From: Leucoraja erinacea
Lineage: Eukaryota
Reading direction: 5' to 3'
Assembly: GCF_028641065.1 (NCBI RefSeq)
Contig: NC_073413.1
Span: 12,338,001 to 12,402,000 of the forward strand
Length of the DNA stretch: 64,000 nt
Under the pieces are notes generated by a model. The model was not told the origin of the DNA. It saw only the letters and a program-made list of their open reading frames with translations, and did not search any database. Positions 2,481 through 55,592 of this stretch are shown in pieces (positions within the stretch are counted from its first letter, which is position 1; every line of letters begins with the position of its first letter). The position numbers and the translations under genes are program-made.

Positions 2481-3336
2481 TCTTTAGCCAGAGGGTGGTG
2501 AATCTGTGGAATTCTGTGTAGGCCAAGTCAATGGATATATTTAAGGCTGAGATAGGTAGATTCTTGATTAGTGCGGGTGTCAGGGGTTATGGGGAGAAGG
2601 CAGGAGAATGGTGTTAGGAGGGAGAGATAGATCAACCATGAATGAATGGCGTAGTAGACTTGATGGGCCGAATGGCCTAATTCTGCTCCTATCACTTATG
2701 ACCTTATGGAGGGGAGAAGGTAGACAAAAATGTTGGAGAAACTCAGTGGGTGAAGCAGCATCTAAGGAGCGAAGGAAATAGGCGACGTTTCGGGTCGAGG
2801 CCCTTCCTCTGAAGAAGGGTCTCAACCCGAAACGTTGCCTATTTCCTTCACTCCATAGATGCTGCCGCACCCACTGTGTTTCTCCAGCATTTTTGTCTAC
2901 CTTCGATTTTCCAGCATCTGCAGTTCCTTCTTAAACATTATGGGGGGAAGAGGTTGAATGATTTCTCCCTGAACCCAACAGCCACCCAAAGGTGTCACTG
3001 AGACCCAGGAGGGATGGGATAAGGGGGGGAGGTCTCTCCACCAGCAGGGAATGTCTGAAAGGATTCCTCAGGAAACTCAGCAAAGATCCCAGCCCCACCC
3101 GCCCCCCCCCCCCCCCCCCCCTTCCCCCCCCCCCCCCCTCCCCTCCCACACACTCCCTACCACAACAGCCATGGAGAGCTGTTATCAGGACATGTATTCC
3201 AAGGGTGAAAGTGCACGCTTGGTGCAAGGGGAATGTGCTGCAGAGTAAAATGAAACTTGGTCGGTGCAGAGAAGGTCCGATGTGTCTGCACTAATTGGGC
3301 TGGCAGTGTGGACCTAGGTGTTTGTTATAGGACTAA

Positions 3337-3735
3337 GTGCTGGAGTAACTCAGCGGGTCAGGCAGCATCTGTAGAGAACATGGATAGGTGACGTTTCACA
3401 GAGTGCTGGAGTAACTCAGCGGGCCAGGCAGCATCTGTGGAGAACATGGATAGGTGACGTTTCACAGCGTGCTGGGGTAACTCAGCGGGTCAGGCAGCAT
3501 CTGTGGAGAACATGGATAGGTGACGTTTCACAGAGTGCTGGAGTAACTCAGCGGGTCAGGCAGCATCTGTGGAGAACATGGATAGGTGACGTTTCACAGA
3601 GTGCTGGAGTAACGCAGTGGGTCAGGCAGCATCTGTGGAGAACATGGATAGGTGACGTTTCACAGAGTGCTGGAGTAACTCAGTAACTCAGCGGGTCAGG
3701 CAGCATCTGTGGAGAACATGGATAGGTGACGTTTC
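3337..3735. repeat. 66-bp tandem minisatellite (~6 units) derived from Penelope-like element terminal repeat
   Basis: Unit GTGCTGGAGTAACTCAGCGGGTCAGGCAGCATCTGTGGAGAACATGGATAGGTGACGTTTCACAGA; period 66 (3337, 3403...). Confidence 0.9.
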
Positions 3736-3959
3736 AGGTTGGGGTTTTTCTTCATCAATGTTTCATGTTTCCACGTTTCTCCCCCAACCTCCACGCTCCC
3801 AGTTTGTCGAAGGGGCCCGACCTGAAACGATGATTGATTGGCGACGGTCCAGATTAATAAGGGGTTAGTTATTCACCCCACAATTAACTCATTCAAAACT
3901 AGAGGAGGGGCAAACTTTGGAGATGTATTTATAATAAAGCAATGTTTTGATCGCAGCTA

Positions 3960-12149: not shown

Positions 12150-12770
12150 CACCCCGACCAACATGCCCCATCTACACTAGACCATCTACACTGCCCACCC
12201 CGACCAACATGCCCCATCTACACTAGTCCCACACCCCGACCAACATGCCCATACCGACCAACATGCCCCATCTACACTAGTCCCACCGGCCCACCCCGAC
12301 CAACATGCCCCATCTACACTACACTAGCCCCACCTGCCCACACCGGGCAACATGCCCCATCTGCACTAGTCCCACCTGCCCACACCAACCAACATGCCCC
12401 ATCTACACTACACCTGCCCACCCCGACCAACATGCCCCATCTACACTAGTCCCACCTGCCCAGCCCGACCAACATGCCCCATCTACACTAGCCCCATCTA
12501 CACCTGCCCACCCCGACCAACATGCCCCATCTACACTAGCCCCACCTGCCCACCCCGACCAACATGCCCCATCTACACTAGCCCCACCTGCCCACCCCGA
12601 CCAACATGCCCCATCTACACTAGTCCCACCTGCCCAAGCCCGACCAACATGCCCCATCTACACTAGTCCCACATGCCCCATCTACACACTATGCCCCATC
12701 TACACTAGTCCGATACCCCAACCAACATGCCCCATCACACCTCTCCCACCTGCCCACCTAGACCCACATG
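12150..12770. repeat. ~42-bp tandem minisatellite within a CR1 3' tail (second array 40360-41240)
   Basis: Unit CCCCGACCAACATGCCCCATCTACACTAGTCCCACCTGCCCA; both arrays run into CCATATCCCTC.AAACC.GTCCTATCC LINE sequence. Confidence 0.85.
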
Positions 12771-13191
12771 CCCCTGTTTGCTCCATATCCCTCTAAACCT
12801 GTCCTATCCGTGTACCTGTCGAAATGTTTCTTAAATGTTACAATAGTCCCTGCATTAACTACCTCCTCTGGCAGCTCGTTCCATAAACCTATGTCCTCTG
12901 GTCCTCGATTCCCCTACTCTGAGCAAGAGACTCTGTGCCTCTACCCGATCTATTCCCCTCATGGTTCCGTATATCTTTATAAGATCACCCCCTCATCCTC
13001 CTGTGCTCCAAGGTATAAAACACTAGCCTGCTCCTCTTCCCCCGTCACATTTCTGATTGGCACCCCTTGGTCCCCCGACACCTCTGGCCGGGAGAGACGG
13101 GGGCAAACAGCACCAGCCTCCGTGTCTATCTACAGCTTGTCACTGAGCTTGTCTGTAGGTATATCGGACATATACGCCAGCTGGTACACAC

Positions 13192-16331: not shown

Positions 16332-16989
16332 GCTGGCGTCCGGTGCCACGAGGCTGACAGTGGAACAGACTTCCCCCTGTAGACAGACAACAAGAACCCA
16401 GTCACTCCCGGCCTGACACAACCCCACCTCCACCCCACCTCTCACCGCAGCAGCGCCTCACAGCGCCACAGACCCTGGTTCAATCCTGACTACGGGTGTT
16501 GTCAGTACGTTCTCACTGTGACTGCGTGGGTTTTCTCTGGGTGCTCTGGTTTCCTCCTCCCACACAGATTCAGATTCAGATTCAATTTTAATTGTCATTG
16601 TCAGTGTACAGTACAGAGACAACGAAATGCATTTAGCATCTCCCTGGAAGAGCGACATAGCAAACGATTTGAATAAATAATAATAAGTGTCCGGGGGGGG
16701 GGGGGGGGGGGTGATGGTGATTGGCAGTCACCGAGGTACGTTGTTGAGTAGAGTGGGGTTTCTCCGAAAGATGTGCAGGTCTGTAGGTTAATTTGCCCCT
16801 CATGAGTGGGGTGGAACTAGCGTATGGGGATCGTTGGTCAGCACGGACATTGTGGGCCAGAGGGCCTGTTTCCACACTGTACTTTTATATGTTCTAATGA
16901 CAGGCATAGCTGAGAGGATAAACTTAATCCATTTTTTAGGGCACCTTTGGTGAGCCCAGAATTATTTATTGTATTTTTGAATTTAGTAA

Positions 16990-17545
16990 TTCAGCGGGTC
17001 AGGCAGCATTTGTGGAGAACATGGATAGGTGACGTTTCACAGAGTGCTGGAGTAACTCAGCGGGTCAGGCAGCATCTGTGGAGAACATGGATAGGTGACG
17101 TTTCACAGCGTGCTGGAGTAACTCAGTGAGTCAGGCAGCATCTGTGGAGAACATGGATAGGTGACGTTTCACAGAGTGCTGGAGTAACTCAGCGGGTCAG
17201 GCAGCATCTGTGGAGAACATGGATAGGTGACGTTTCACAGAGTGCTGGAGTAACTCAGCGGGTCAGGCAGCATCTATGGAGAACATGGATAGGTGACGTT
17301 TCACAGAGTGCTGGAGTAACTCAGCGGGTCAGGCAGCATCTGTGGAGAACATGGATAGGTGACGTTTCACAGCGTGCTGGAGTAACTCAGTGAGTCAGGC
17401 AGCATCTGTGGAGAACATGGATAAGTGACGTTTCACAGAGTGCTGGAGTAACTCAGCGGGTCAGGCAGCATCTGTGGAGAACATGGATAGGTGACGTTTC
17501 ACAGAGTGCTGGAGTAACTCAGCGGGTCAGGCAGCATCTGTGGAG
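16990..17545. repeat. 66-bp Penelope-derived minisatellite (~8 units); further arrays at 6640-6755, 29458-29655, 34950-35450, 39240-39420, 42325-42430, 44880-45050, 45305-45770
   Basis: Same unit as 3337-3735, found in both orientations. Confidence 0.9.
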
Positions 17546-19950
17546 ATGCAACAGTGGCATTTAAGAGACTTTTGGATAGGCATATGGATATGCAGGGAAT
17601 GGAGGGATCACATGCAGGCAGACAAGACAGTGCTGACGTCATCTTTAGCACAGACATTATGGGCTGAAGGGACTATTCCTGTGCTGCTCTAAGAGCTGCT
17701 CAGGGAGGTAGTCGAGACAGGTACAATAACAATACATTTAACAGGTGTATGGATAGGAAGGGTTTTGTGGGATTTGGACAAATATGCAGCACGTTGGAGC
17801 AGCGGATACAGTTGCTGCCTCACAGCACCAGAGACCCGGGTTCCATCCTGACTACCGGTGCTGTCTGTATGGAGTTCGTAGGTTCTCCCCGTAACCTGTG
17901 TGGGTTTTCTCCTAGATCTATGGTTTCCTCCCACACTCCAAAGACGTACAGGTTTGTAGGTGAATTGGCTTGGTATGAATGTAAAATTGTCTCTAGTGTG
18001 TGTAGGATCGTGTTAATGTGCGGGGATCGCTGGTCGGCACGGACTTGGTGGGCCGAAGGGCCTGTTTCTGCACTGTATCTCTAAACTAAACTAAAACAGG
18101 GACTAGCTTGTTTGGGACATCCTGCTCTCCAGGCATGCGTGCAGGTTCGTTGTGTGAATTCCCTTCCCTCAGAGTGATATATACGCATCAAGTGGAATCT
18201 AATGCTGGGACCGCAACTTAAATTGAACTGCACCGCTGCTTCCTTCCTCACAGAGCTCTGCAACCAGGCATCACTCACTACTTTACTGCGAGACCCAAGA
18301 CTACAAATGATTTCAGTGCGAGTTCCCCTGAGTGCCACATCAAACAGCTGGTGACAGAAGGGACTGCCCCATCGGTACATTCACGCCCCTCCGGGTGCTC
18401 CGGTTTCCTCAAAAAACACATACAGGTTTGTAGGTTAATTGTCCCTGGTGTGTAGGATAGTGTTCATGTGCGGGGATCGCTGGTTGGCACAGACTCAGTC
18501 CGCGCTACACGAAACCTCACTAACATCCAATGCAAGCTCTCAACACTTAAACCAACCTGTGGACTCCAGAAGTCCGCACAAGGCGAGCATTTAATACATT
18601 GACAGGGACCCAAGTTTGAGAGGCTGGAAATAATGTGGCGTGGCTAATCAATAAACCAACAGGATGTGGAACTGCATCACAAAATAGAAGTCAGGAAAGC
18701 GTAACATCCACCCTGTTACACTCCTCTGCCAGGAACCACCTACTACTCACAGCCCAAACCCGCCAAGCTCAGGTTTATGCAGCATTTCCCATGACTTCAG
18801 TGTGGCCCATAGCCAAGTACTTTTGGCATCTAGTCCCTCTCGCCGAGTAGGGTAGGTGGCAAACCACAGCAAGATTCCACAGGTGTGTAAGAAAGAACTG
18901 CAGATGCAAGTAAAATCAAAGGTAGACACAAAATGCTGGAGGAACTGCCAGGTGAGGCAGCATTTATGGAAAGAAGGAATGGGTGATGTTTCAGGTCGAA
19001 ACCCTTCTTAAGACGAGGCAGTTGTCTGAAGAAGGGTCTCGACACAAAACGTCACCTATTCCTTCTATCCATAGATGCTGCCTCACCCGCTGAGTTCCTC
19101 CAGCATTTTGTGTCTACCCACAGGTGTATGTTGAGTGTCAGACATCAGCAGCAACTCACCTGCTCTTTGACTCGTGCTGGGAAGAGATGGGGCTGAGGAT
19201 TAAGGCCCCAAGTGAAGACGGCACTTCACCAACAAGGTGCTCGCTCGGCACGGCACTGTAGTGTCACTGCAGACTTTGTGCTCGAGTTTCTGGAGCGGAA
19301 CTTGAACAGAGTCAGGTGAACTGAAACTCACTGAGTCACTTATTAGTCATCAGGAAAGATTCAGGACGTAAAATAACCCTTCGTTGGCGAGACCAAAACT
19401 GCGTTCAACGCTTCAGATGTGGTCTTTGGTAATCTGGTTAAAAATGCTTTTCAAAGCCTGCGGTACTTGCAGCATTTGTGGAGTGAGGAAACACAGCACG
19501 GAAACAGGCCCTTCGGCCCACCGAGTCCATGTCCACCATCGATTACTGTACACACTAGTTATTTCCCACTTTCCCTCTCCACACACACACACACGAGGGG
19601 GCAATTTACTGAGGGCTGATTAACCTACAAACCTGTGCGTCTTTGGGATGTGGTAAGAAACCGGAGCACTCGGAGGAAACCCACGTGGTCACAGTGCAAC
19701 AAACCTCAGCCACAAAGTAGCCCTGGGATCTTTTGTAGCAGTGGAGAGCCACTCTCTTCTCCCCTCTCCCATCGGGCAAAGGGTATCGAAGTGTGAAAAC
19801 GCACACCTCCAGATTCAGGGACAGTTTCTTCCCGGCTGTTATCAGGCAACTGAACCATTTGACCAACAATGAGAGAGCAGTCCTGAACTACTATCTACCT
19901 CTTTGGTGACTGCAAATGATTGTAATCATGTATTGTCTTTCTGCTGATAT

Positions 19951-34273: not shown

Positions 34274-36142
34274 CGCGGCCAGCAGATGTCTTGCTCTCTC
34301 TCCAAGATTGAACGTTAGTGGTTAGGTAAATATAGAAAGCAGTGGGTGGTAAAGCAAGCCGCCAGCACTAGAATGACTGGAATACTCTAGACCGTCTATG
34401 GGCAAGTGCTGAAAGATGGGATTTTTATGGGTGGATGCCTACTGGTCAGCAATGATGTGGTGGGCCGAATGGCCTTTTTTTATTCCTGCTGTAAGCGAGT
34501 TGTAGACTAAATAGCCAATTCCTCTTCTCCTTGGAGCAAAGGGTTAGTGGGCAGGGTCGGGGTCAGGGAGGCTGGGAGAGGAGAGATGCAGGGTGGTGTT
34601 AGGATACAGTGTCTCATGCCAACACTTTAGTACAATGGGACTGAGGGAAAAACTCCATGTAGATGGAATTGTGGGAACAATTCAGGGCTGGGAGGAGGAG
34701 AGTTTATAGGGCAGTGGGACAAGAGTGGGTCTGATGGGATTGCACACTCAAAAGGCTGAATGGCCTTGCCTGTGCTATAACAGAGCATTGAGACTGGTAG
34801 GACTAGCTGGTGTGGAGTGAGTGGGGAACACCTGAGACTTTGACCAACAAGGGTTAGTCGTGTGCAAGCTCAGGACCTGCCAGTGTGGCTGAGGACATTG
34901 TGTACGGAGGAACTGCAGATGCCGGTTTAAAACTGAAGACAGACATAAAAAGCTGGAGTAACTCAGCGGGTCAGGCAGCATCTGTGGAGAACATGGATAG
35001 GTGACGTTTCACAGAGTGCTGGAGTAACTCAGTGGGCCAGGCAGCATCTGTGGAGAACATGGATAGGTGACGTTTCACAGAGTGCTGGAGTAACTCAGCG
35101 GGTCAGGCAGCTTCTGTGGAGAACATGGATAGGTGACGTTTCACAGAGTGCTGGAGTACCTCAGCGGGTCAGGCAGCATCTGTGGAGAACATGGATAGGT
35201 GACGTTTCACAGAGTGCTGGAATAACTCAGCGGGTGAGGCAGCGTCTGTGGAGAACATGGATGGGGGACATTTCACAGAGTGCTGGAGTAGATCAGCGGG
35301 TCAGGCAGCTTCTGTGGAGAACATGGATAGGTGACGTTTCACAGAGTGCTGGAGTAACTCAGCGGGTCAGGCAGCATCTGTGGAGAACATGGATAGGTGA
35401 CGTTTCACAGAGTGCTGGGTAACTCAGCGGGTCAGGCAGCTTCTGTGGAGAGCAGGGCAGGAGGGGAGACGGTAAACTCTTTGAACAGGCAGTTGAGAGA
35501 GGAAATGATGACGGGTTCAAGTCGGGATGCTACATTTATTTCTCCAAGCTCATTAACACAGGCTTGAGTTGACTGTAATGGTCAAGTGGCAGGGCAGGGA
35601 GTGGTCATACTGGTCAGCTGGATCACACTGCTCCTGAATACTGAATCAGCAAGCTCTGTGTGAGAACACCATCAGTGATGGGAGAGCTTCATTATACACA
35701 TGGTTGGGGCCTATTCCTCAGCTTGCCTGTAGAGTTTTAGTTTGGATCCATCATTTCATTGGGCATCTTGCTGATCCCAGCCCAGTTTGTATTGGTTACA
35801 CCCTCATGATATTTGGTTTACACACTCCACACTCCCCCAATGCCAATACTGCGCTTTGACCCCTAAATCAGACAGAAGAATATGGAATTCTCTCCTCTTC
35901 CAGCCCTCAAGAGACTGTCCAAACATTCAACTCATGAATCTGGTTCAAAACTGCAAGGGAGGAGAGGTGAAGATTCCAGCGTAGAATACATTCTAGCACA
36001 GGGGGTCAAGGACAATGCCTTGAAAGAAACAAATTACATTTGTACACACAGCCAAATTAAGCACCCCATCCCTTATAAATCTTTTACAAAAAGCAATGGA
36101 GGATGCAGAACAGAGTGCAATCACACAGAGACCGTGTGGTGA

Positions 36143-36247
36143 CTAAAACTCATCGTGCTGGTCCATCAGCTCTCCGAAATTGGTGACACCACTTCCTACG
36201 AACCTGTTGTAGTTCTCCAGGAATTCCTCCTTTGTGAGTTTGCCATC
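36143..36247 (-). CDS. RCN3: RCN3 (reticulocalbin-3, CREC family) last exon
   Basis: [34 protein letters not shown]; minus-strand AATAAA candidates at 35535 and 33861. Confidence 0.9.
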
Positions 36248-38832
36248 CTGACGGGGAAGTAAGGGTTGGTTAGACACGGACCCACACACTCACTTAATAA
36301 CAATCGGAACAGTCCAAAAAAAACAAACAAAATACATTTACAGGCAATTATCAGTAACATGTTGCAACAGCTGGTCACAATAGTGTGAGCAGGGGCTGCA
36401 AGTCATGGATTAACCAATAATCTGAACCCTTGGCTCCATTTGTTGCAATGGGTTAATGTCAATGACAGATTCTGTCCTGATGTAAGTGGTGAGCGGGAGG
36501 TAATGTCATTAGCGGCACTAACTGGGCACTAAGAGCCTGTCGCTGGTGGGAATAAATGAGGAGCCGAATGCAAGAACTTGGCACGGTGTCAGGGCCAATG
36601 TCAATCCCAAAGCCGGGAAACGTTGTGGAGAAGGTTCGCCAATTTTAAAATTCAGCTCAGTTTGTCAGAGCAGCAAGTTGAATCTCGACTGTGATGGAGG
36701 TCCGATCCTAGTGACCGTACCACCGGTCAGCTTCACGTACATCCTCCCCCCCCCCCCCCCCCCTCCTACCTCACACAGTGGCTGGGGATGGGGCTCAGGT
36801 GCGGCTCGCAACAGTGGCGGGCAAAGATACAAGCAGGAGGCGGTTCCCATGCAGTCCAGGATCACGCACAAGCAGTGGCAGTGTCAGCCCATCTGCTGAT
36901 GAGCCAATAACCTTCACAAAATTAACATCACAAACTTTTACAGAAGATGGAGGTTGGGGTAAAAAAAAAAAAATAAAAATCACCAGCCAGCCAGCCAGGC
37001 AGGCAATTGTACACAAACTGTGGGGAACTCATGGAGAAAGCCAAAATCTGAAATGAATTAACCCAGTTACAACATCTCTGCTGGTGAGATGAGGGTCCAT
37101 GCCTGGGGCTGCTCCTTGGGTCAGAGGGGAGTCGGATTAAAGCATCACCAGAGCTTGGAGCCCCACCCACTGCAGGATGGAGGGGGCATTGAATGGGAAA
37201 CTCAGTCAGTCAAAGAGGAAATAGAACAATTGAACACAATTAATGTTTCTGATCACATTTCAAATTATTCACGCCCTGGGTTAGCAAGAAACAAACTGTT
37301 TTTGATGCAGTTTCTGTGGGATCGGTGGCGATCGACTGATTGATTGATTGATTGATTGATTGGAAATATTGATTTGCGACTCAGAGTTCGTCGTGTTTTC
37401 GCGTCAGGTCCTCCCCATAATTGGTCACTTGGCTGCCAACAAACATATTCCAGTTGTTTACAATCTCCTGCTTTGTCAGTTTACTGTCCTGTGAACACAC
37501 AGTGCAAGACAAGACAAGGTTAGTGTGAGCAGATGAAACTCAGTGGAGCAAAGCGTGCAGTCCTGCATTCTGGTACACTGAGAATAAACGCCTAGATTAT
37601 TTTCTAAATGGAGAGAGAGTGGGACTTGGGAGTGCTGGCGCAAGATTCCCAAAAAGTTAATTTGCAAGTCGAATCAGTAGTAAGGAAAGCAAATTCAATG
37701 CTAGCATTTATATCAAGAGAACAAGAGAGCTAGCATTCAAACAAGAGGACATGACTTCAGAATTAAGGGACAGAAGTTTAGGGGTAACATGAGGGGGAAC
37801 TTCTTTACTCAGAGAGTGGTAGCGGTGTGGAATGAGCTTCCAGTGGAAGTGGTGGAGGCAGGTTCATTGGTATCGTTTAAAAATAAATTGGATAGGCATA
37901 TGGATGAGAAGGGAATGGAGGGTTATGGTATGAGTGCAGGCAGGTGGGACTAAGGGGAAAAAAAATTTGTTCGGCACGGACTTGTAGGGCCGAGATGGCC
38001 TGTTTCCGTGCTGTAATTGTTATATGGTTAACTGGAATACAAAAACAGACATGTAATGCTGAGGCTCTATAAGGCGCTGGTCAGGCTACAAATTTGGGCC
38101 TCATTATCTGAGCAAGGATGTGCTGGCCCTGGGGAGGATGTTTACAAGAATGACCCCAGGATTGAGTGGGTTAGCATATGATGAGCGTTTAACAGCACTG
38201 GGCCTGTACTCACTGGAGTTTAGAAGGTTGAGAGGGGGACCTCATTGAATATGGTGGCAGAGTTGGTCCCTCACTGCAAGAGGGGCAACGCACTTACCCC
38301 GGGTCTGCCTATCTGAAACAATGCCCCACTTTCTACCTTCGCTCTTCCTTCTATTAATATTTAACGTGTCATTCCGAACTGTCACTGTATGTCATGTTGT
38401 CACTTGTGGGCGGAGCACCAAGGCAAATTCCTTGTATGTGAATACTTGGCCAATAAACTTATTCATTCATTTCCCCCCAAACGCCCTGCAATTCTGACCG
38501 GGTGTAGGAAGTGTGCTTCAGCTACAGGGAACGGTAGGATTGGTCACGGGCCGACATGCTAGAAGTATATAAGATAATGAGAGGCATAGATAGGGTCACA
38601 ACTTTGTCCCTGGGTGGAAGTGTGAAAGGCTAGAGGGCAGAGTTTTAAGGCGAGTGGGGCAGTTTAAAAAATGATTTGCAGGGCAACAGAAGTGGCGGGG
38701 GTAGTGGTGGAGGCTGCACTAAGGGGCAGATTGGGCAGCGCACATGTACAGTACAGACAGGAAGTCAGTGCATAAAGTTGCATAAAGCAGCTGGGGGGGA
38801 ATAACGAGTGGGACGGGACCGTGAAGACCAAC

Positions 38833-40108: not shown

Positions 40109-41394
40109 CTGTGGGTGGGGGGAGAGGGAGAGGGAGAGGGATTAAACTCCCATCACTCAATAGACAATAGGTGCAGGAGTAGAGGCCATTCAGCCCTTTG
40201 AGCCAGCACCGCCATTCAATGTGATCATGGCTGATCATCCACAATCAGTACCCCGTTCCTGCCTTCTCCCCGTGTCCCCTGATTCCGCTATCTTTAAGAT
40301 TCTCTATCTTGCACGGTTTGCAGAGATACGCTGTTCAAAGTGGATTTTAATTCTCCAGCCAACCAACATGCCCCATCTACACCAGTCCCACCTGCCCACA
40401 CCGCCCAACATGCCCCATCTACACCAGTCCCACCCCGACCAACATGCCCCATCTACACCAGTCCCACCCGACCAACATGCCCCATCTACACCAGTCCCAC
40501 CCCACCAACATGCCCCATCTACACCAGTCCCACCCCGACCAACATGCCCCATCTACACCAGTCCCACCTGCCCACCCCGACCAACATGCCCCATCTACAC
40601 CACCTCCCACCCCGACCAACATGCCCCATCTACACCAGTCCCACCTGCCCACACCGACCAACATGCCCCATCTACACCAGTCCCACCTGCCCACACCGAC
40701 CAACATGTCCCATCTACACCAGTCCCACACCGACAAACATGCCCCATCTACACCAGTCCCCCTCCCCACACCGTCCATGCCCCATCTATACCTGTAACCC
40801 ACCTGCCCACACCGACCAACATGTCCCCCAGCTACACCAGCCCTCCTCCCGCAGTTCCTTCCATACACACACAGTCCCCCCTTTGTGTGAAAACCGACCC
40901 TTGGATGCCCATTAACCCTCTACACCAGTCCCACTGGCCCCACACCGACCAACATGCCCCATCTACACCAGTCCCACCCGGACCGACATGCCCCAACTAC
41001 ACTTGTTCCACCCGGACCACACATGCTCTCAACTACACTAGTCCCACCTGGACCGACGTGCCCCATCTACACTTGTCCCACCAGCCCACACCGTCAACAT
41101 GCCCCATCTGGACACCAGTCCCCACACGGGCCAGGCATGGTCTGGGGGTCCCACCAGCCCACACCGACCAGGCAGGAAGCCCCATCTACACCAGCTGCCC
41201 ACACTGACCAGCATGCCCAATCTACACCAGTCCCACCTGCATTTGGCCCATATCCCTCCAAACCCGTCCTATCCATATACCTGTAACCGTTTCTAAAACA
41301 TTGTGATAGTCCCGGCCTCAACTACCTCCTCCAGCAGTTCCTTCCATAGACCCACCGCCCATTAAACCCTCGGGTGCCCCCCACTGGCCGTTAC

Positions 41395-44734: not shown

Positions 44735-47026
44735 CTGGAAGGGGGGGGGGGACGAACGAACAAGACGGGCAGAAGGTCAGTGGAAGGGGCAAGAGGACAC
44801 GAGCGGATCAGGTCCACAGCCTCGCAGCTCCAGAGACCTGGTTTAAGAGTAGAATCAAGGAACTGCAGGCACGCATAAAGTGCTGGAGTAACTCAGCGGG
44901 TCAGGCAGCGTCTCTGGAGAACATGGATAGGTGACGTTTCACAGAGTGCTGGAGTAACTCAGCGGGTCAGGCAGCGTCTCTGGAGAACATGGATAGGTGA
45001 CGTTTCACAGAGTGCTGGAGTAACTCAGCGGGTCAGGCAGCGTCTCTGGAGAGAAGGAATGGGTGACGTTTCGGGTCAAAACTCTCCTTCAGACCTTTTG
45101 CAGTCACGACCCAAAACGTCACCCATTCCTTCTCTCCTGAGACGCTGCCTAATCCACTGAGTTACTCCAGCATTTGGTGTCTATCTTCAGTTTAAACCAG
45201 CATCTGCAGTTCCTTGCTGCACAAAGTGTCGGAGTAACTCAGCAGGTCGGGCAATATCATGGGAGAACAATATCCTGGAGGAGCTTCTTGAGGCTCAAGA
45301 AGTAATCTATCCATGTTCTCCAGAGATGCTGCCTGACCCGCTGAGTTACTCCAGCACTCTGTGAAACGTCACCTATCCGTGTTCTCCACAGATGCTGCCT
45401 GACCCGCTGAGTTACTCCAGCACTCTGTGAAACGTCACCTATCCATCCACAGATGCTGCCTGACCCGCTGAGTTACTCCAGCACTCTGTGAAACGTCACC
45501 TATCCATGTTCTCCCACCCGCTGAGTACTCCAGCATTTTGTGTCTATCATCATGAACCAGCATCATATCGGGTCAAAACTCTTTTAGAAATAGGCAACGT
45601 TTCGGGTCGAAACCCTTCCGGGTTTCGGCCCGAAACGTTACCTATTTCCTTCACTCCATAGATGCTGCCTGACCCACTGAGTTACTCCAGCACTCTGTGA
45701 AACGTCACCTATCCATGTTCTCTACAGATGCTGCCTGACCCGCTGAGTTACTCCAGCACTCTGTGTCTTGTTTTGTAAACCAGCATCTGCAGTTCCTCGT
45801 ATCTATATTAAACACTCTTGTAAAGCTCCCACCCCTAGTTCCCTAACAGCAGGATTTTACAAACTGCCTCTGGGTAATGGAGGGAGTGCAGAGTCATCGT
45901 TGGAAGCGGCTTAATGTTTTGGGGAAATATGTAACAGATCACTGGTTGGGGCTTGTCTGTTGGGTTGCTGGCTGGGTGGAAGTGGCTCAGTTCACTGCCA
46001 CGTGTGAGGCTGCTATTGACAAGTCGCTCGCTCCGGTGTGGGGGTGGGGAAGGGAACCCTCTCACTGCCACCTCAGCTCAGGAAGCAGCCGGCCATGTCA
46101 GGGAATTGTGGTGGGAGGGGAGGGGGGGAGAGAGCAGAGGCTGGAGTCTTCAATCTCAGGCACAAAGCAAAATAGCACAACTTCAGAAAGATTCCAAACT
46201 CCCAGCTTGTCGCAGAAAACACAAACCAGGATCCCCGCGGTCAGAGATTGGAATTCAGCTCGTAGCTGGAACGTCTAGTGGCCTGGGAGTCTCAAAACTT
46301 TTAAGTTAAATTAAAATTATTATTAAGTTGAAGGCACAATGTTTAAAGGATTGAAAAGTGCCAACAATAAGTCAAATTATTATTAAATTGAAGCTACAAT
46401 GTTTAGTGGTGTGGAAATGCCAACGGTACAGGATTGTTCACTGAAACATCACAAATGGGCAGAGGTTTATCAGGAGCTTCATCGCCTAACGGTTAAATAA
46501 AACGGCCTTCCAATAAAACAGACAGATGTTATCAACAAGTATTAAGGTCGAGAGAACAGGGACAACTTGGCAGCTAGCTGGTGTAATGCTGGCTGGTGTC
46601 AGCGGAGTGAATGGGGGGGGTCGTTGTGAAGGGGATGAGGGGCAATGAAGGGGTACACGAGAGTGTTGTGGGGGGGGGAGTTAAGGCGAGTCAAAATAGG
46701 GGGGGGGCGCACCAGGGCTGTCCTTGATCCCATCACTTTTGAGGTCTTGTTTTCACTCCTTACCCTTCCTTATCTCTGTGTCCCCTTTTCCCCCCCCGAC
46801 TCTCAGTCTGAAGAAGGGTCTCGACCCCAGACGTCACCCATTCCTTCTCTCCAGCGATGCTGCCTGTCCCACTGAATTACTCCAGCTACTTGTGTCTATC
46901 TTCTGTCACGTTGGGGGGCAGTTTAGGGGGTGCATTGGACCACCAGGGTGGGGGACAGTTTAGGTGAGTGTAGCTGATTTTCAAGGCTGAGATCAGGTAG
47001 AGCATTAGCATTGACATGGTGCCTAC

Positions 47027-47253
47027 CCCAGCCTCTCTTTGCTCTCCTCCGGAGTGAGTTGGTCGAAGGTCTTTGAGCCTTCTCTCCCCATGAAGGCCTC
47101 ATGATCGAACTGGAAGCCGTTCTGGTCGTTTGGATCCCGCTCATCCAGGTCCTTGGAATGGTGCACGCGCTCCTTCTTCTCCGAGGTGGGTTTGCAGAAT
47201 GCCACGGAGGCACAAAGGGCCAGCAACCCCAGCAGGCTTCGCTGCCTCATCAT
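47027..47253 (-). CDS. RCN3: RCN3 coding exon 1 (signal peptide)
   Basis: [32 protein letters not shown]...[29 protein letters not shown](G); acceptor at 47256; total CDS 969 nt = 322 aa. Confidence 0.93.
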
Positions 47254-48794
47254 CAACTGCAGGAATCACACACACACACACACGTTTAGACACAGGGACT
47301 GAGAGCCACGGGCAGGCGAAAATCCCAGCACAAACTCCCCCAATCTCCACAGCCTGGCGTGAAATCAGTCACAGCCACCCTGTTCTTTGTCCCACTAATG
47401 CTGCTTTAACCAATTGTCATGTATTCAATCAAGAACTCCCTCTTGAACCACCACAGGACATTTCCAATACTGGGGGCACTAAATACAAAATATTATTTTT
47501 GTAATGTTACTACTTCCAGGCATGGCATTTCAGGTTACAGCTTGCACATGAAACCTCAGTTTTCTACTCCATACGTGGCCCTTTTGACTAACGTAAAGCC
47601 CGTCTCTTCTATTACAAACTTTATTGCAGGACCAACAATTAAAATCTGTCTACTTTTATCACTATTTCAGATAAACAATCCCCTCTCAAAGTGATAAAAG
47701 AATTAAATGTCAGTAGAATATAAATTTTAAACAGCATGGCATGCAAATGTAATTAAATCAATTGCAGGTAATATTGAGGAATTAACAATTAATTTATTAT
47801 TTATGGGACAGAGAACATGCTGCAAAAGCAGATCACACTCCCCTCAAGATTAATCATCAGATATCCCATTACTCGAGTAACTCAGCAGGACAGGCAGCAT
47901 CTCAGGAGAGAAGGAATAAGGGTCTCAACCCGAAACTTCACCCTTTCCACTCCAGAGATGCTGCCTGTCATGCTGAGTTACTCCAGCATTTTGTGTCTGT
48001 CTGCAGTTCCTTCTTACATACACTAGTTAAGACTTAAGATTTTCCTTTAACATAAAATCATCTTGGAAGTTTATTACATTGATATATTCAGCATTATTAA
48101 TGTGCAAGATAAAATTATTGTACCCTACTCAAATCAAAAAGGTATTCATCAAATTTAATGCCAGATAATTGTTGCCAGCTTAAAGAAGTATAACTGGTCC
48201 CAAGAACCAGTTGATCAGCTCTGCGTGGGATATTTACTTACTAAAATCAAATTTCAGAATTTGCAATACAAAGTAAAACCTTTCCATTACCATCTTAGCG
48301 GCATTTATAGATTCTCAGCTCTATTTTGATATCACAAATCCGTCACGATCTTCAGTAATTATTAAAACATTCTCCTAGAGCTTTCCAATTAGCTTTTTAA
48401 CCCAACCCCAAAACTGTCATTTTACACCTTACAAGTTTTAAATAACATCGAATTGTGCTGAAGCTTTTATCAGCTTACAAAACAAAACTCCTGACATCTC
48501 TTTATCGAATTAATTAATTTGATACAGTGAGAGGCACCAAAGCATAATAATAATTCTGATCAATAAAAGTCTGAAAGGGAGTTATGTGCAAACTTTAGAA
48601 CTCAAGCTTTTTTTGCACAAATTAAATTGAAACTCCAAGGTTATGGGTAATAAAAGTTGAAATGTTTTTACTACAACACACACACACACACAAAATCAAA
48701 GTAGAATAAAAAGATTAGCCTTACCAGTGGGGTTATCAATGAGTCTGATAAGAAGTTACAATAATCACGCCCTGGACCCTGAATAAATACTCAC

Positions 48795-48970
48795 CACGGC
48801 CGGAGAGAGGATTGTAAACTCCTCCAATCAGCGCCAGCCTTTCTCCCGAATCGTTGCCCGAGCGCGTTTGTCACGGCTCCTGCCATTGGTCGAGCTGCCC
48901 CGAGTTTCCCATTGGCTGGGAACCGCCACGTTGACACGGGGAGCGACCACTGCGCCTGCGCGTCGCGCGC
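48795..48970 (-). promoter_or_regulatory. RCN3: RCN3 non-coding exon 1 and CpG promoter
   Basis: GTG|GTGAGT donor at 48795; CCAAT boxes (ATTGG ~48886, 48911); NRF1-like TGCGCCTGCGC ~48951. Confidence 0.65.
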
Positions 48971-49244
48971 ATTGCCTTCTGGTACTTGTAGTCGTACTTT
49001 TTTAAAAAGTTAAAATGGTATCTGTGAAGAAAGAAGACGGTCGGCATTTGCTAAACAACGTTAAAAGACCGGGGTTTTAAAAGCAAAAGTGAGAGGAAAA
49101 AGCGAGTTAAAACGACTTAAAAGTGATTCCACGAGTGATGGACAGGTCATCCTGCCAATGGCGTGTTGGTTTGGTGCAACGATCCTATAGGCTCCTTGAT
49201 TTGATGTACGTGTCAGTTAGTGAATGGGGGCGGGGACAACACGC

Positions 49245-49970
49245 CCTATGTCAGTGGCGACCAATCACAGGTCATGGGGGCCCGGTAAAGTCCCGCCCCC
49301 TGTCAGGGTCGACCAATCACAGGTCACGGGGGCCCGGTAATGTCCCGCCCTATGTCAGTGCCGACCAATCACAGGTCACGGGGGCCCGGCAAAGTCCCGC
49401 CCTATAATCAGGGCCGACCAATCACAGGTCACGGGGGCCCGGTAAAGTCCCGTCTGTGTCAACGTCGACCAATCACAGCGCTCCAGGGCACGGCAAAGTC
49501 CCACTCTGTGTCAGGGTCGACCAATCACAGGCTGTCGAGGCCCGGCGATGTCCCGCCCTCTGTCAGGGTTCGGTCAATCACAGAACGACAAGGAACCACC
49601 CTATGTCAGGATCAGCCAATCACAATGCGCCAAAGCTCGGCAAAGTCCCGCCCTATATCAGGCTCGACCAATCACAGCGCTCCAGGGCACGGCAAAGTCC
49701 CACTCTGTGGCAGGGTCGACCAATCACAGGCTGTCGAGGCCCGGCGATATCCCGCCCCCTGTCAGGGTCGACCAATCACAGGCCGTCGAGGCCCGGCGAG
49801 GTCCCGCCCTATGTCAGGATCAGCCAATCACAGTGCGCCAAGGCTCGGCAAAGTCCCGCCTTATAACAGGGTCGACCAATCACAGCGCTCCAGGGCACGG
49901 CAAAGTCCCACGCTGTGTCAGGGTCGGCCAATCACAGGCCGTCGAGGCCCGGCGAGGTCCCGCCCCACCC
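49245..49970 (+). repeat. 52-bp promoter minisatellite (14 units) of CCAAT and GC boxes
   Basis: CCAATCA at 49261, 49313, 49365, 49418, 49469, 49521, (49574 degenerate), 49616, 49668, 49720, 49772, 49824, 49876, 49928; most units also carry GTCCCGCCC. Confidence 0.92.
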
Positions 49971-51619
49971 CCCGGTGATTGACGGGCTGGTTTGGGCGGG
50001 AGCGCGGCGGCGGCGAGTTGTTCGCGGGCGGGCGGGCGCGAGGCCGGAGCCCGGAGGCGGCGCTGCAGCTCAAACAAACAAACCATCGCCTGTCTATTAA
50101 CTCTAAACCAGCCTGGAGGCTCCAACACTAAAAGCCACACAGGACAAGGTGGCTGCTCTATATCTAGCTCGCCAAACAAGGAGGTGAGGAGTGATAAACA
50201 ACACAATTGTGGAGGAAAAGAAACAATCAAGACTGATTTTTCCGTCAAAAGCCCGCAAATCTCTTAAAAAACACAGAACCCAAGGCACCCAAGGGTGTTG
50301 TGCTGGTGCCAGGCTGCATGCACCCTGTGGAAATGGGTGGGTGAGGGAGACCTCCACTTTAAATTCCATTTGGAATATTTTGGATGACCAAGAAACCAAG
50401 AACCAAGACTTGTCTTGAACCAACCCTTAAAAGTCAATGCAAATCCTTGCAGCAAAGTCCTGAGAGACTGCAGGTCAATCTGGTGGAAATATCTATCAAA
50501 CTGCAGCTGCTTAAAGCCTTTGGGGGAAAAACTCCAAAATGATGGATTACTCAGCAGGTCAAGCAGCGTCTGTGGAGAGAGAGAAAGAATACTTTGCCGT
50601 TTTGGGTTTTATGACCTTTAGCCAGTTATTTTGCTTGGTTAATGTGGTTCAATTGTTCACCACCCAGCTTCTGCACCAGACAAGACTTCAGGAAAATATC
50701 AGTCCAAAACTCATAACGACATATTAGATCACTTTATTTCCATCTCTCTTCCATTTTCCCCTCTAGCTTAAAAATTTTAAGTGTCCATCGCTTTGCAAAA
50801 GATGCATAAGAGTTTGGTTTAATGATACAACGTAGAAACAGGCCCTTTGGCCCATTGAGTCCAAGCCGACCATTGATCACCCTATGTTATCCTGTTGCAA
50901 TTTAATTTATCGAGGCCAACTAATCTGGGATGTGGGAGGAAACCCATGCGGTCACAAAGAGAACTTGCAGATTCCTCACAGACAGCACCCGAAGTCAGGA
51001 TAAAACCTAGGTCTCTTGCTATGAGATAGCAACTCTACCAGCTATGCCACCCTATAGAGAGTCACTGAAATTATGGGAATGAGGGAGAGGTACATTGGTA
51101 GACTGGAAAAATTGGGGTTGTGCTCCTTGGAAACAGGAGGAAGAAGGAATTGCAGATGCTGGTGTACAAAAGTAGGCGCAAATTACTGGAGTAGCTCAGC
51201 GGTGTGAAGAAAGGGTCCCGACCCCAAAACCTCACCAATCCCATGTTCTCCAGAAATGCTGCCTGACCCGCTGAGTTAATCCAGCACTGCGTTTTACTTG
51301 GAATTGAGGAGGTTGTCAGGGATCAGATAGTGGTATTTAAAATTTAGAGGATGTAAACAGATAAATTGACTCATTGACAGTGGGCCCAGTAACAGAATGA
51401 AGGTGTTCAAGAAGGAACTGCAGATGCTGGAAAATCGAAGGTACACAAAGATGCTGGAGAAACTCAGTGGGTGCAGCAGCAGCTATGGAGTGAAGGAAAT
51501 AGGTAACGTTTCGGGCCGAAACCCTTCTTCAGACTGAGTTTCTCCAGCATCTTTGTGTACCAACAGAATGAAGGTGATTGACAAAATAAGCCAAACTAAA
51601 AGATTTTCTTGCAGAGTGA

Positions 51620-52169
51620 ATTCAGTAAAACTGATGATCTGACACCCTCAGAATTTTGGTGGTGCTAGATTGGATTCCCTTCCTATTCATACCCAAACAC
51701 ACATAATTATTATTTTTTTACAAATTACACAATAATGTAATAAATTGTGATGAGCAAGAAATATACTAGTGCTCAAGACCTTGGCTTCAGTTGCAGATGT
51801 ACCTATGTTCCTCATCTTTGGTGCTCTGGATCCTGATCCAGTTTTGGCTGCAGACGAAATGTGTAGGAAGGAACCGCAGATACTAGTTTACACTATTCAG
51901 TAAAACTGATGATCTGACACCCTCAGAATTTTGGTGGTGCTAGATTGGATTCCCTTCCTATTCATACCCAAACACACATAATTATTATTTTTTTACAAAT
52001 TACACAATAATGTAATAAATTGTGATGAGCAAGAAATATACTAGTGCTCAAGACTTTGGCTTCAGTTGCAGATGTACCTATGTTCCTCATCTTTGGTGCT
52101 CTGGATCCTGATCCAGTTTTGGCTGCAGACGAAATGTGTAGGAAGGAACCGCAGATACTGGTTTACACT
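51620..52169. repeat. Near-perfect 275-bp tandem duplication
   Basis: 51620-51894 repeated at 51895-52169 with about two visible substitutions. Confidence 0.9.
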
Positions 52170-53947: not shown

Positions 53948-54152
53948 ATGAAACCTATGGAGAGAGATGAGGCACCACTGAGAATAAACGCTTTCACCCT
54001 CATTCCAACTCAAAAATACAGAAGAAGCTGCAGACAACTACAATCCAAGAAAGGTGGTGATAGACTGGAAAACTTCCACATACAGTATAACTGTGGCTAT
54101 TTCCAGTTAATACCAGTTGAAATCTTTCACAAAGTGTTGTGTTACCTTTCAG
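53948..54152 (+). CDS. FBXO47: FBXO47 (F-box only protein 47) coding exon 1
   Basis: ...RINAFTLIPTQKYRRSCRQ...GYFQLIPVEIFHKVLCYLS(V) aligns by eye with human FBXO47 (RINTNFTLIPNQKLRRSNRQ...GNFKALPLEIFQIILKYLSV); start codon choice uncertain. Confidence 0.88.
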
Positions 54153-55592
54153 GTACAATATCACAATAAGTACATTTTTTAAGTAAATATTTTTTTTCTC
54201 CTTGTATTGATTTCTTTAGTTGAGTGATTTTCACTCCGTCTCTCCTGAAAATGTTGATTCGCGTGGAAGTCATGAGATTTTGAAGCATTGTGGTTGCGTT
54301 ATTGGACTAGCAATCCAGAGGTTTTCACTAGTATAGCAGAGATAGGAATTCAAATCCCATCACACCTTTTAGGGAATTTAAATGTCATTCATTAATCTGG
54401 TCTAAAAAAAGTCAATGGCATTTCCCAGTGACCGTTAAACAACTTGACATTATAAACACCCATGTGATTCACTAGTGAATAGACAGACCTGTGGCCTTGA
54501 CCCCTATTAACTCTAGATTTGTCCAAATATCCTTTGAAATGACAGGTTCAAGGGCATTTTTAAGGATGAATATTAAACAATGGTCTGATCACAATGACAC
54601 GTCCGTGAGGGAAAAGTAATATTCGGACAATAGCTCATCTCTCCAACTGGCTGAGTATCTTATTGAGCCCATTTTCTCAGTATTCTGCATACAATAGCTT
54701 TCCTTCAAAAGAGGTTGATGCTTTTTCAATTTTCCCTTCCCAATATCCTTCTTACAATGATAACACTCAGTACAGCTTAGTGATGGTGCCTGGGATCCTT
54801 GAGATTTCTAACCAGACAAGATGTGTTTCTGTGGTGAGACAATTCTGGTTAACTATTTTATCTGACAGTTACCTTGCTAACGATTGGTGATGAATTATGT
54901 TAGTGAAACAGTGGTTTCCATTGTAATATTTTCCTCAAATCTAAATTATAAGCATGGGGTATTATTTGTGTTTTACTATCTCTTTATAAAGAAAATCATT
55001 TAGTGCTGAGGCACTGAGATAAATAAACGATAAGGTCTCACGTTCAATTATTGCTCTGTCCTCAGTTTACAAATTCCTGAAAGCCTTCCCTGAAAGTGGA
55101 TGATATTTTTGTTGAAAACAAGATTGATGTTTTTCAAACCTGTTGTCTCTCCATTCACTGGTTAATTATTCACTGGTTAATTATTGTCATTCGGACTCTG
55201 TCTGGGATGAGATGGTAATTTTGAAAGATTTGGGGTGAAAGATTAAAAAAATAATTAATGAGTGGTGTGCCATGGAGCTGTCAGAAGCCCACATGAGCAT
55301 ACAATTCCACATAGATCAGGCCATAACAAAGACAAATTTCCTTCTACGAGAATTAATAAACCAGATTTTTGTTTGACAGTCCAGCAATGTTATGAATTCA
55401 CTATTACTGATGATGAACAAGTTTTTTATTTGACATCTTTTTAATTCATGTAAATTCCGCAGCTCGTGTCTGTGGATCTTAAGTGTGGGCCTCTGGATTG
55501 CTAGTAACCCAACCTATGCTACCATGTCCCTAAGTCTAGTTTTATGATAATAATCAGGTGTGGTACATTATTTTGTCTTCTGTTTTTATCAG

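Follow-up and report, generated by a model that had tools for sequence, protein, structure and literature searches.

What is a tandem run of CCAAT boxes, repeated about every five helical turns, doing between two divergent skate genes, how did it arise, and does its period carry meaning? The locus lies in Leucoraja erinacea contig NC_073413.1 (positions 12,338,001–12,402,000, forward strand), a stretch of 64,000 nucleotides analysed as a whole and hereafter called the window, in whose coordinates all positions are given. A literature search, conducted mostly outside subscription papers, returned no report of the RCN3–FBXO47 array or of a genome census of the kind presented here.

The array and the genes on either side

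TRF placed a 52-bp tandem array at 49242–49965 (14.1 copies, 75% matches) and called 208 bp as a second period. The composition given in a preliminary description was borne out: 14 units, 13 of them with an intact CCAATCA (CAATCAC is present in 14 of 14), nine CCCGCC GC boxes and ten TGTCA motifs, the latter previously ascribed to most units. Units are pairwise identical at 65–96%, that is, up to 35% diverged, and fall into the following segments:

49241–49448, plus strand: units 1–4, one variant (type A), 87–94% alike (unit alignment)
49449–49966, plus strand: units 5–14, a four-unit higher-order repeat in 2.5 copies (TRF and unit alignment)
49554–49595, plus strand: unit 7, 42 bp (10 bp short), with a decayed box, GTCAATCAC

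The common variant previously recognized in units 1–4 is thus confirmed, as is a 208-bp higher-order repeat of four units (types B, C, D, E / B, C, D, E / B, C), which begins at 49449 with unit 5 rather than at 49616. CCAAT-to-CCAAT spacings along the array are 52, 52, 53, 51, 52, 95, 52, 52, 52, 52, 52 and 52 bp, the 95-bp gap arising because unit 7 is short and its box has decayed (on the minus strand, TGATTGAC). Open frames across the array were rejected as a by-product of GC-rich repeats.

The array has a CpG observed/expected ratio of 0.80, against 0.44 for the whole window, 0.20–0.51 in six other tandem repeats of the window and a customary threshold of 0.6, which suggests little germline methylation. 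A DNA search of the 2.19-Gb genome, in which common words were skipped, found the array at one locus, and all five genome matches to a 21-nt unit pattern fall inside it, in agreement with the earlier view that it is not a dispersed transposable element or satellite. Tandem arrays of 66 bp (3336–3736, 16985–17546, 34952–35451, 44879–45514) and 42 bp (12246–12774, 40362–40850), all low in CpG, also occur in the window and apparently derive from dispersed repeats.

The interval between the flanking genes contains the following features:

47026–47253, minus strand: RCN3 first coding exon (tblastn with shark and ray RCN3 proteins, 82–87%; RNA depth)
48790–48830, minus strand: likely non-coding RCN3 exon 1, 3' part (donor motif at 48790–48794; RNA depth)
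48885–48992, minus strand: RCN3-proximal promoter elements, with two minus-strand CCAAT boxes at 48885 and 48911 (sequence)
49137–49159, plus strand: one canonical DECA-CCAAT composite (GAnnGAC-11 bp-CCAAT), left of the array (pattern match)
49966–50190, plus strand: CpG-rich FBXO47-side segment, likely the exon 1 region (CpG ratio; candidate donor motif at 50184)
53948–54157, plus strand: FBXO47 first coding exon (homolog search, tblastn)

Named matches to the left gene are led by reticulocalbin-3 proteins from rays and sharks. The nearest of these, a skate protein (95%), falls among cartilaginous-fish RCN3 in a 24-row tree, separate from calumenin and mammalian RCN1. FBXO47 is intact, its ten exons covering a 458-residue relative and reaching 7.4 kb beyond the window end. 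Pfam gave no name to the FBXO47 exons or to RCN3 exon 2; homolog search and tblastn did, and together with the tree they uphold the head-to-head placement described earlier. Sawfish RCN3 and FBXO47 proteins apparently lie on one contig, a mere hint of old synteny. The last coding exon of RCN3 is duplicated (36146–36250 and 37384–37491, minus strand), each copy best matching the C-terminus of a different ray isoform, which suggests alternative last exons. A 275-bp two-copy tandem duplication with 99% identity (51620–52169, TRF) lies in what is likely the first intron of FBXO47.

Bidirectional promoters are defined by start sites within about 1 kb of each other and shared elements. The two head-to-head genes and the CpG-rich interval have the layout of a bidirectional CpG island (observed/expected 1.16 at 49966–50110), and RCN3 exon-1 reads (48681–48829) lie more than 1.1 kb from the array end at 49966. 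In an RNA sample of about 5% and 3% of two runs, low in depth and with many SINE reads, the bin 48681–48829 reached 0.7x (X24) and 0.23x (X23) and reads also fell on RCN3 exon 2; depth was zero over 48830–50170, with about one read at 50171–50290. A motif at 48720 is a second candidate donor for RCN3 exon 1. Since RCN3 has CCAAT boxes of its own, 330–350 bp left of the array, service of both genes by the array stays a candidate role only; the same segment (48885–48992) also holds what we take to be NRF1-like and ZNF143-like motifs. Directly after the last unit, a DECA-like site, TGATTGACGG, occupies 49976–49985 on the plus strand. Contigs of run X4 cover 48709–50290 and few flank bins, as those of a putative open-chromatin library would, with no weight given to missing cover; run X3 carries GATC-type insertions resembling ligation junctions.

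Constraint within the unit and change among relatives

A column test on the 14 CCAAT-to-CCAAT intervals (52 columns, 60 parsimony changes; one alignment, one tree) located the slowest-changing part of the unit. CCAATCA took one change in seven columns (0.14 per column vs 1.31; permutation p=0.0025), the core having been picked for testing because it had already been seen to be conserved, and CCAATCACAG was the best of 52 windows. The two positions that precede CCAAT took five changes, every one from purine to purine, and the 9-mer formed by CCAATCA and these two columns was not significant (p=0.11). Across units, no extra conservation was detected for the GC box TCCCGCCC (seven changes, p=0.30) or for TGTCA (four changes, p=0.32). 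By this measure, the CCAAT core is the constrained part of the unit. A reading of TCCCGCC as an E2F6 site was set aside, since the motif shows no special conservation.

These results run against the three-factor NF-Y/Sp/TALE cassette proposed previously. The array TGTCA is inverted and stands 7 bp from CCAAT, and GAnnGAC placed 11 bp upstream of CCAAT on the same strand occurs in 0 of 14 units, its one match being that in the flank at 49137; the suggested PBX/MEIS (TALE) sites are therefore not borne out in the units. Passages of bioRxiv 10.64898/2026.02.16.706105 define the TALE/NF-Y composite as GAnnGAC-11bp-CCAAT and model short spacings as clashing.

Comparison with relatives drew on four of 24 listed cross-species runs and four within-species runs. 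Array-type units were present in all four runs from other or unlabelled organisms, differing in order and number. In a contig of organism B, a single type-A unit takes the place of the four in the window, and the 95-bp gap is also present; the contig shows 24 differences in 217 array bases vs 20 in about 1010 flank bases, and G>C at 49615 removes the purine before one box. In organism C, there is one additional step of two units, and the last unit is 10 bp short, probably the same variant as unit 7; a 10-bp-short unit is seen in both B and C. The region 48377–49760 had no cover in organism C and was not counted as absence. In organism D, the flank is shorter by 32 bp and 10 bp, placing the upstream CCAAT 64 rather than 106 bp from the first array box. 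The flank is unbroken around the array in organisms B and D, and only point and 1-bp variants are readable in the within-species contigs.

Among the joints and gaps listed, the independent non-unit indels longer than 1 bp within the CCAAT-bearing region are −10, −10 and −32, all near whole turns (chance about 0.2 each, on a post hoc reading). Outside that region, those listed measure 2, 3, 4, 4, 4 and 2 bp, none of them near a whole turn, and lie in micro-repeats.

Helical phasing in the array and across the genome

With a helical repeat of 10.4–10.5 bp per turn, neighbouring array boxes differ by at most 0.05 turn. The earlier proposal that all modules face one side of the helix holds for neighbouring boxes and is less certain for the whole array, whose first and last boxes would be about half a turn out of register at 10.5 bp (0.13 turn at 10.4). 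Phasing as such cannot be shown by one array, which would fit by chance with a probability of about 0.2; the support comes from a genome census.

The census searched for three CCAATCA motifs with both spacings inside set windows that together cover 33–64 bp; it misses arrays whose two spacings straddle window borders. Later windows required purines before boxes 2 and 3, and the raw counts of the first six windows were all recovered from fetched loci. The loci yielded 46 regular arrays in 30 families, of which five were dropped (one dispersed repeat family and four with a modal gap under 33). The new observation is that 24 other NF-Y-type array families have periods near whole helical turns: across periods of 33–64, with the RCN3–FBXO47 array left out, V=0.40 at 10.5 bp (p=0.0024), and the best-fitting period is 10.3 (p=0.008 after scanning 8–14). 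The result weakened to p=0.045 under the harshest merging of possibly related families (n=18) and stood at p=0.0085 when the five dropped families were restored (n=29). In a split made after the loci had been seen, 17 CpG-rich families gave V=0.47 (p=0.0025) and phasing was not significant in the seven CpG-poor families; ten non-CCAAT repeat families used as a control gave V=−0.03.

Raw triples against the reversed pattern numbered 81/32 at 41–43, 85/25 at 51–53 and 42/45 at 62–64 near whole turns, and 7/138 at 36–38, 49/86 at 46–48 and 35/43 at 57–59 in the other windows. The clustering of the census periods supports whole-turn phasing as a property of the class, within the surveyed range of 33–64; NF-Y-type arrays with 23–30-bp units also exist. 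Within arrays, the variant gaps show only weak phasing (n=38, V=0.14, p=0.047; positive in 7 of 13 families), and a phase inherited at birth fits this better than one policed later. The simplest source of the phase would be a pair of phased boxes that underwent slippage and expansion. According to passages of PMC11269187, human NFY and Sp1 sites favour 10.5-bp positions relative to start sites, and those of PMC4889920 give human double-CCAAT distances of 24–28 and 35–37 bp, half-turn values if taken literally, with an offset that is not fixed.

At 29 loci, the neighbours of the arrays were scanned in 285 ORFs out of the 985 that had passed filtering. Exons matching the starts of pinin, Tom5, NUDT16-like, proteasome-alpha and RRM models adjoin arrays, and TRIM RING exons, a CBM21 (PPP1R3-like) ORF and an ASH domain also lie beside them; retrotransposon ORFs adjoin one array family, a further family is located at a TIP39 exon and another in a tubulin cluster. 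By these matches, several arrays sit at the starts of housekeeping-type genes. Many loci had no neighbour match among the 285 ORFs scanned, and no germline bias was visible in this sample of ORFs and loci. The germline role suggested earlier thus fares poorly, with arrays of the same class beside pinin, TRIM, PPP1R3-like, NUDT16-like, proteasome-alpha, RRM and ASH-domain exons.

Several census loci deserve separate description. Most listed rows of the 2136 matches belong to a dispersed CCAATCA family with 32-, 34- and 27-bp spacings (L007–L036; G000 C1 and others). A 42-bp CCAAT/GC-box array family occupies small contigs (L111, L113–L116, L121, L123), with TRIM RING-B-box exons at three of these loci, in L123 directly after the array. 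Arrays of 62–63-bp units at L170, L171 and L180 each hold 4–5 canonical DECA-11-CCAAT composites; L170 has a proteasome-alpha first exon at a distance of about 2.8 kb, and L180 adjoins an RRM exon. From L118:4135 onward, 35 CCAAT boxes follow a period of 51 (variants 41 and 62), adjacent to a NUDT16-like first exon. Two 52–53-bp CCAAT arrays with unlike units (L135, L136) lie on the same contig as the RCN3–FBXO47 array, about 6.6 Mb and 207 kb off. Shuffle z-scores between arrays, tried as proof of kinship, were rejected as inflated by shared GC boxes.

Origin, rival readings and known counterparts

The reading that we consider probable, if only somewhat so, is that of a single-copy promoter minisatellite that would have originated by slippage between boxes, grown by unequal exchange and come under selection on its CCAAT core, to serve as a redundant NF-Y platform keeping the island open. 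The earlier idea of a promoter built by tandem amplification is supported. Slippage between two neighbouring, similar NF-Y boxes about five helical turns apart may have started the array, their misalignment copying the 52-bp interval, so that the period would go back to the box spacing of the old promoter. From there, unequal exchange would have given rise to both the higher-order repeat of four units and the recent series of units 1–4, while selection would remove changes that break the CCAAT core and tolerate those in spacer, GC box and copy number. The same kind of slippage appears to have affected many promoters in the skate genome, and this would account for the concentration of array periods around 42, 52 and 62 bp.

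CCAAT binds NF-Y, and the array is predicted to be a redundant, multivalent platform for it. Bound NF-Y would hold the region nucleosome-free, most directly for the FBXO47-side start beside the last unit; that NF-Y keeps the upstream promoter border free of nucleosomes is described in passages of bioRxiv 10.64898/2026.02.16.706105. Two observations count against selection on the boxes, namely the decayed box of unit 7 and the purine lost at 49615 in organism B.

A neutral passenger is possible, if on the unlikely side. Slippage of phased boxes would have set the period, expansion would have been unselected, only one or two start-proximal boxes would matter and CpG would be kept by the island. 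The census is explained in this way with no selection on arrays, and the unconstrained GC box and TGTCA, the barely phased variant gaps, unit number and order differing between species and 1-bp indels within the species all agree with it; so do passages of PMC3188502, which treat local duplication as a common source of neighbouring sites. Against it stand the sparing of the core in units up to 35% diverged and the phase kept by three of the three larger indels listed, each with a chance of about 0.2. Box-centred misalignment could, for its part, itself homogenise the core.

Distinctly less probable is the model of the preliminary description, in which copy number of a phased NF-Y/Sp/TALE cassette tunes both genes or keeps FBXO47, which we take to be a meiotic prophase gene, open in the germline. 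The TALE geometry is lacking in the units, the GC box is unconstrained, other arrays flank housekeeping-type genes and RCN3 carries its own boxes. It is highly improbable that the array goes back to an insertion between the genes of a transposon or an LTR promoter, for it occupies one locus genome-wide, matches no fetched dispersed-family copy at E<0.01 and has an unbroken flank in organisms B and D. What speaks for an insertion is a dispersed family with clustered CCAATCA in the genome, the census family beside retrotransposon ORFs and a weak (58–65%) likeness between the array and both the 42-bp TRIM-cluster arrays and one 25-bp array, a likeness that rests on common CCAAT and GC boxes.

To return to the selected minisatellite, a bolder version, which we regard as doubtful, holds that tandem amplification of NF-Y modules is a routine means of rebuilding promoters in skates, and likely in sharks, with boxes and whole-turn period under selection and the arrays acting as evolvable dials of expression, and that the FBXO47 array is an old case in which the accessibility of a meiotic gene is set. 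If so, the census would amount to a natural experiment in the helical grammar of promoters. Two dozen unrelated arrays near 42, 52 and 62 bp indicate that promoter repeat expansion follows or preserves NF-Y spacing rules; they offer natural alleles with which to ask whether output is tuned by the number of sites and whether helical phase still matters farther than 120 bp into a promoter. In FBXO47, moreover, a meiotic gene has such a variable element beside it.

The closest counterpart is the CBF/NF-Y minisatellite enhancer of human ABO, with four 43-bp units at −3931 to −3650 (passages of PMC7187371). Both are single-locus tandem CCAAT units upstream of a gene with periods near whole turns, and the RCN3–FBXO47 array has the sequence features of an ABO-type NF-Y promoter minisatellite. 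Copy number varies in ABO, and unit number and order differ between species in the skate array, which departs from ABO in its 14 units of 52 bp, their divergence of up to 35%, its higher-order repeat, its CpG-rich intergenic setting and its sharing across species. NF-Y binding and activity have been demonstrated for ABO and are predicted for the skate array; the same passages record that ABO copy-number effects are disputed, which also suits a neutral passenger. The 33-bp promoter VNTR of human TRIB3 is likewise a tandem-copied promoter element but, according to passages of PMC7425993, consists of a C/EBP-ATF site in 1–5 copies, is human-specific and has a demonstrated dose effect.

Multi-CCAAT NF-Y promoters resemble the array in having several spaced CCAAT boxes with GC boxes between (passages of PMC4889920), but neither they nor the DECA-CCAAT promoters of TALE/NF-Y/Sp2 are tandem repeats (PMC4889920; bioRxiv 10.64898/2026.02.16.706105). 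The canonical DECA-11-CCAAT of the TALE/NF-Y/Sp2 composite occurs once, in the left flank, whereas the TGTCA of the array is inverted. NF-Y-bound LTR12/ERV-9 and RLTR10 carry multiple CCAAT boxes, as the array does, and show germline-linked accessibility; they are, however, dispersed retroviral LTRs (passages of PMC12065363), whereas the RCN3–FBXO47 array is single-copy.
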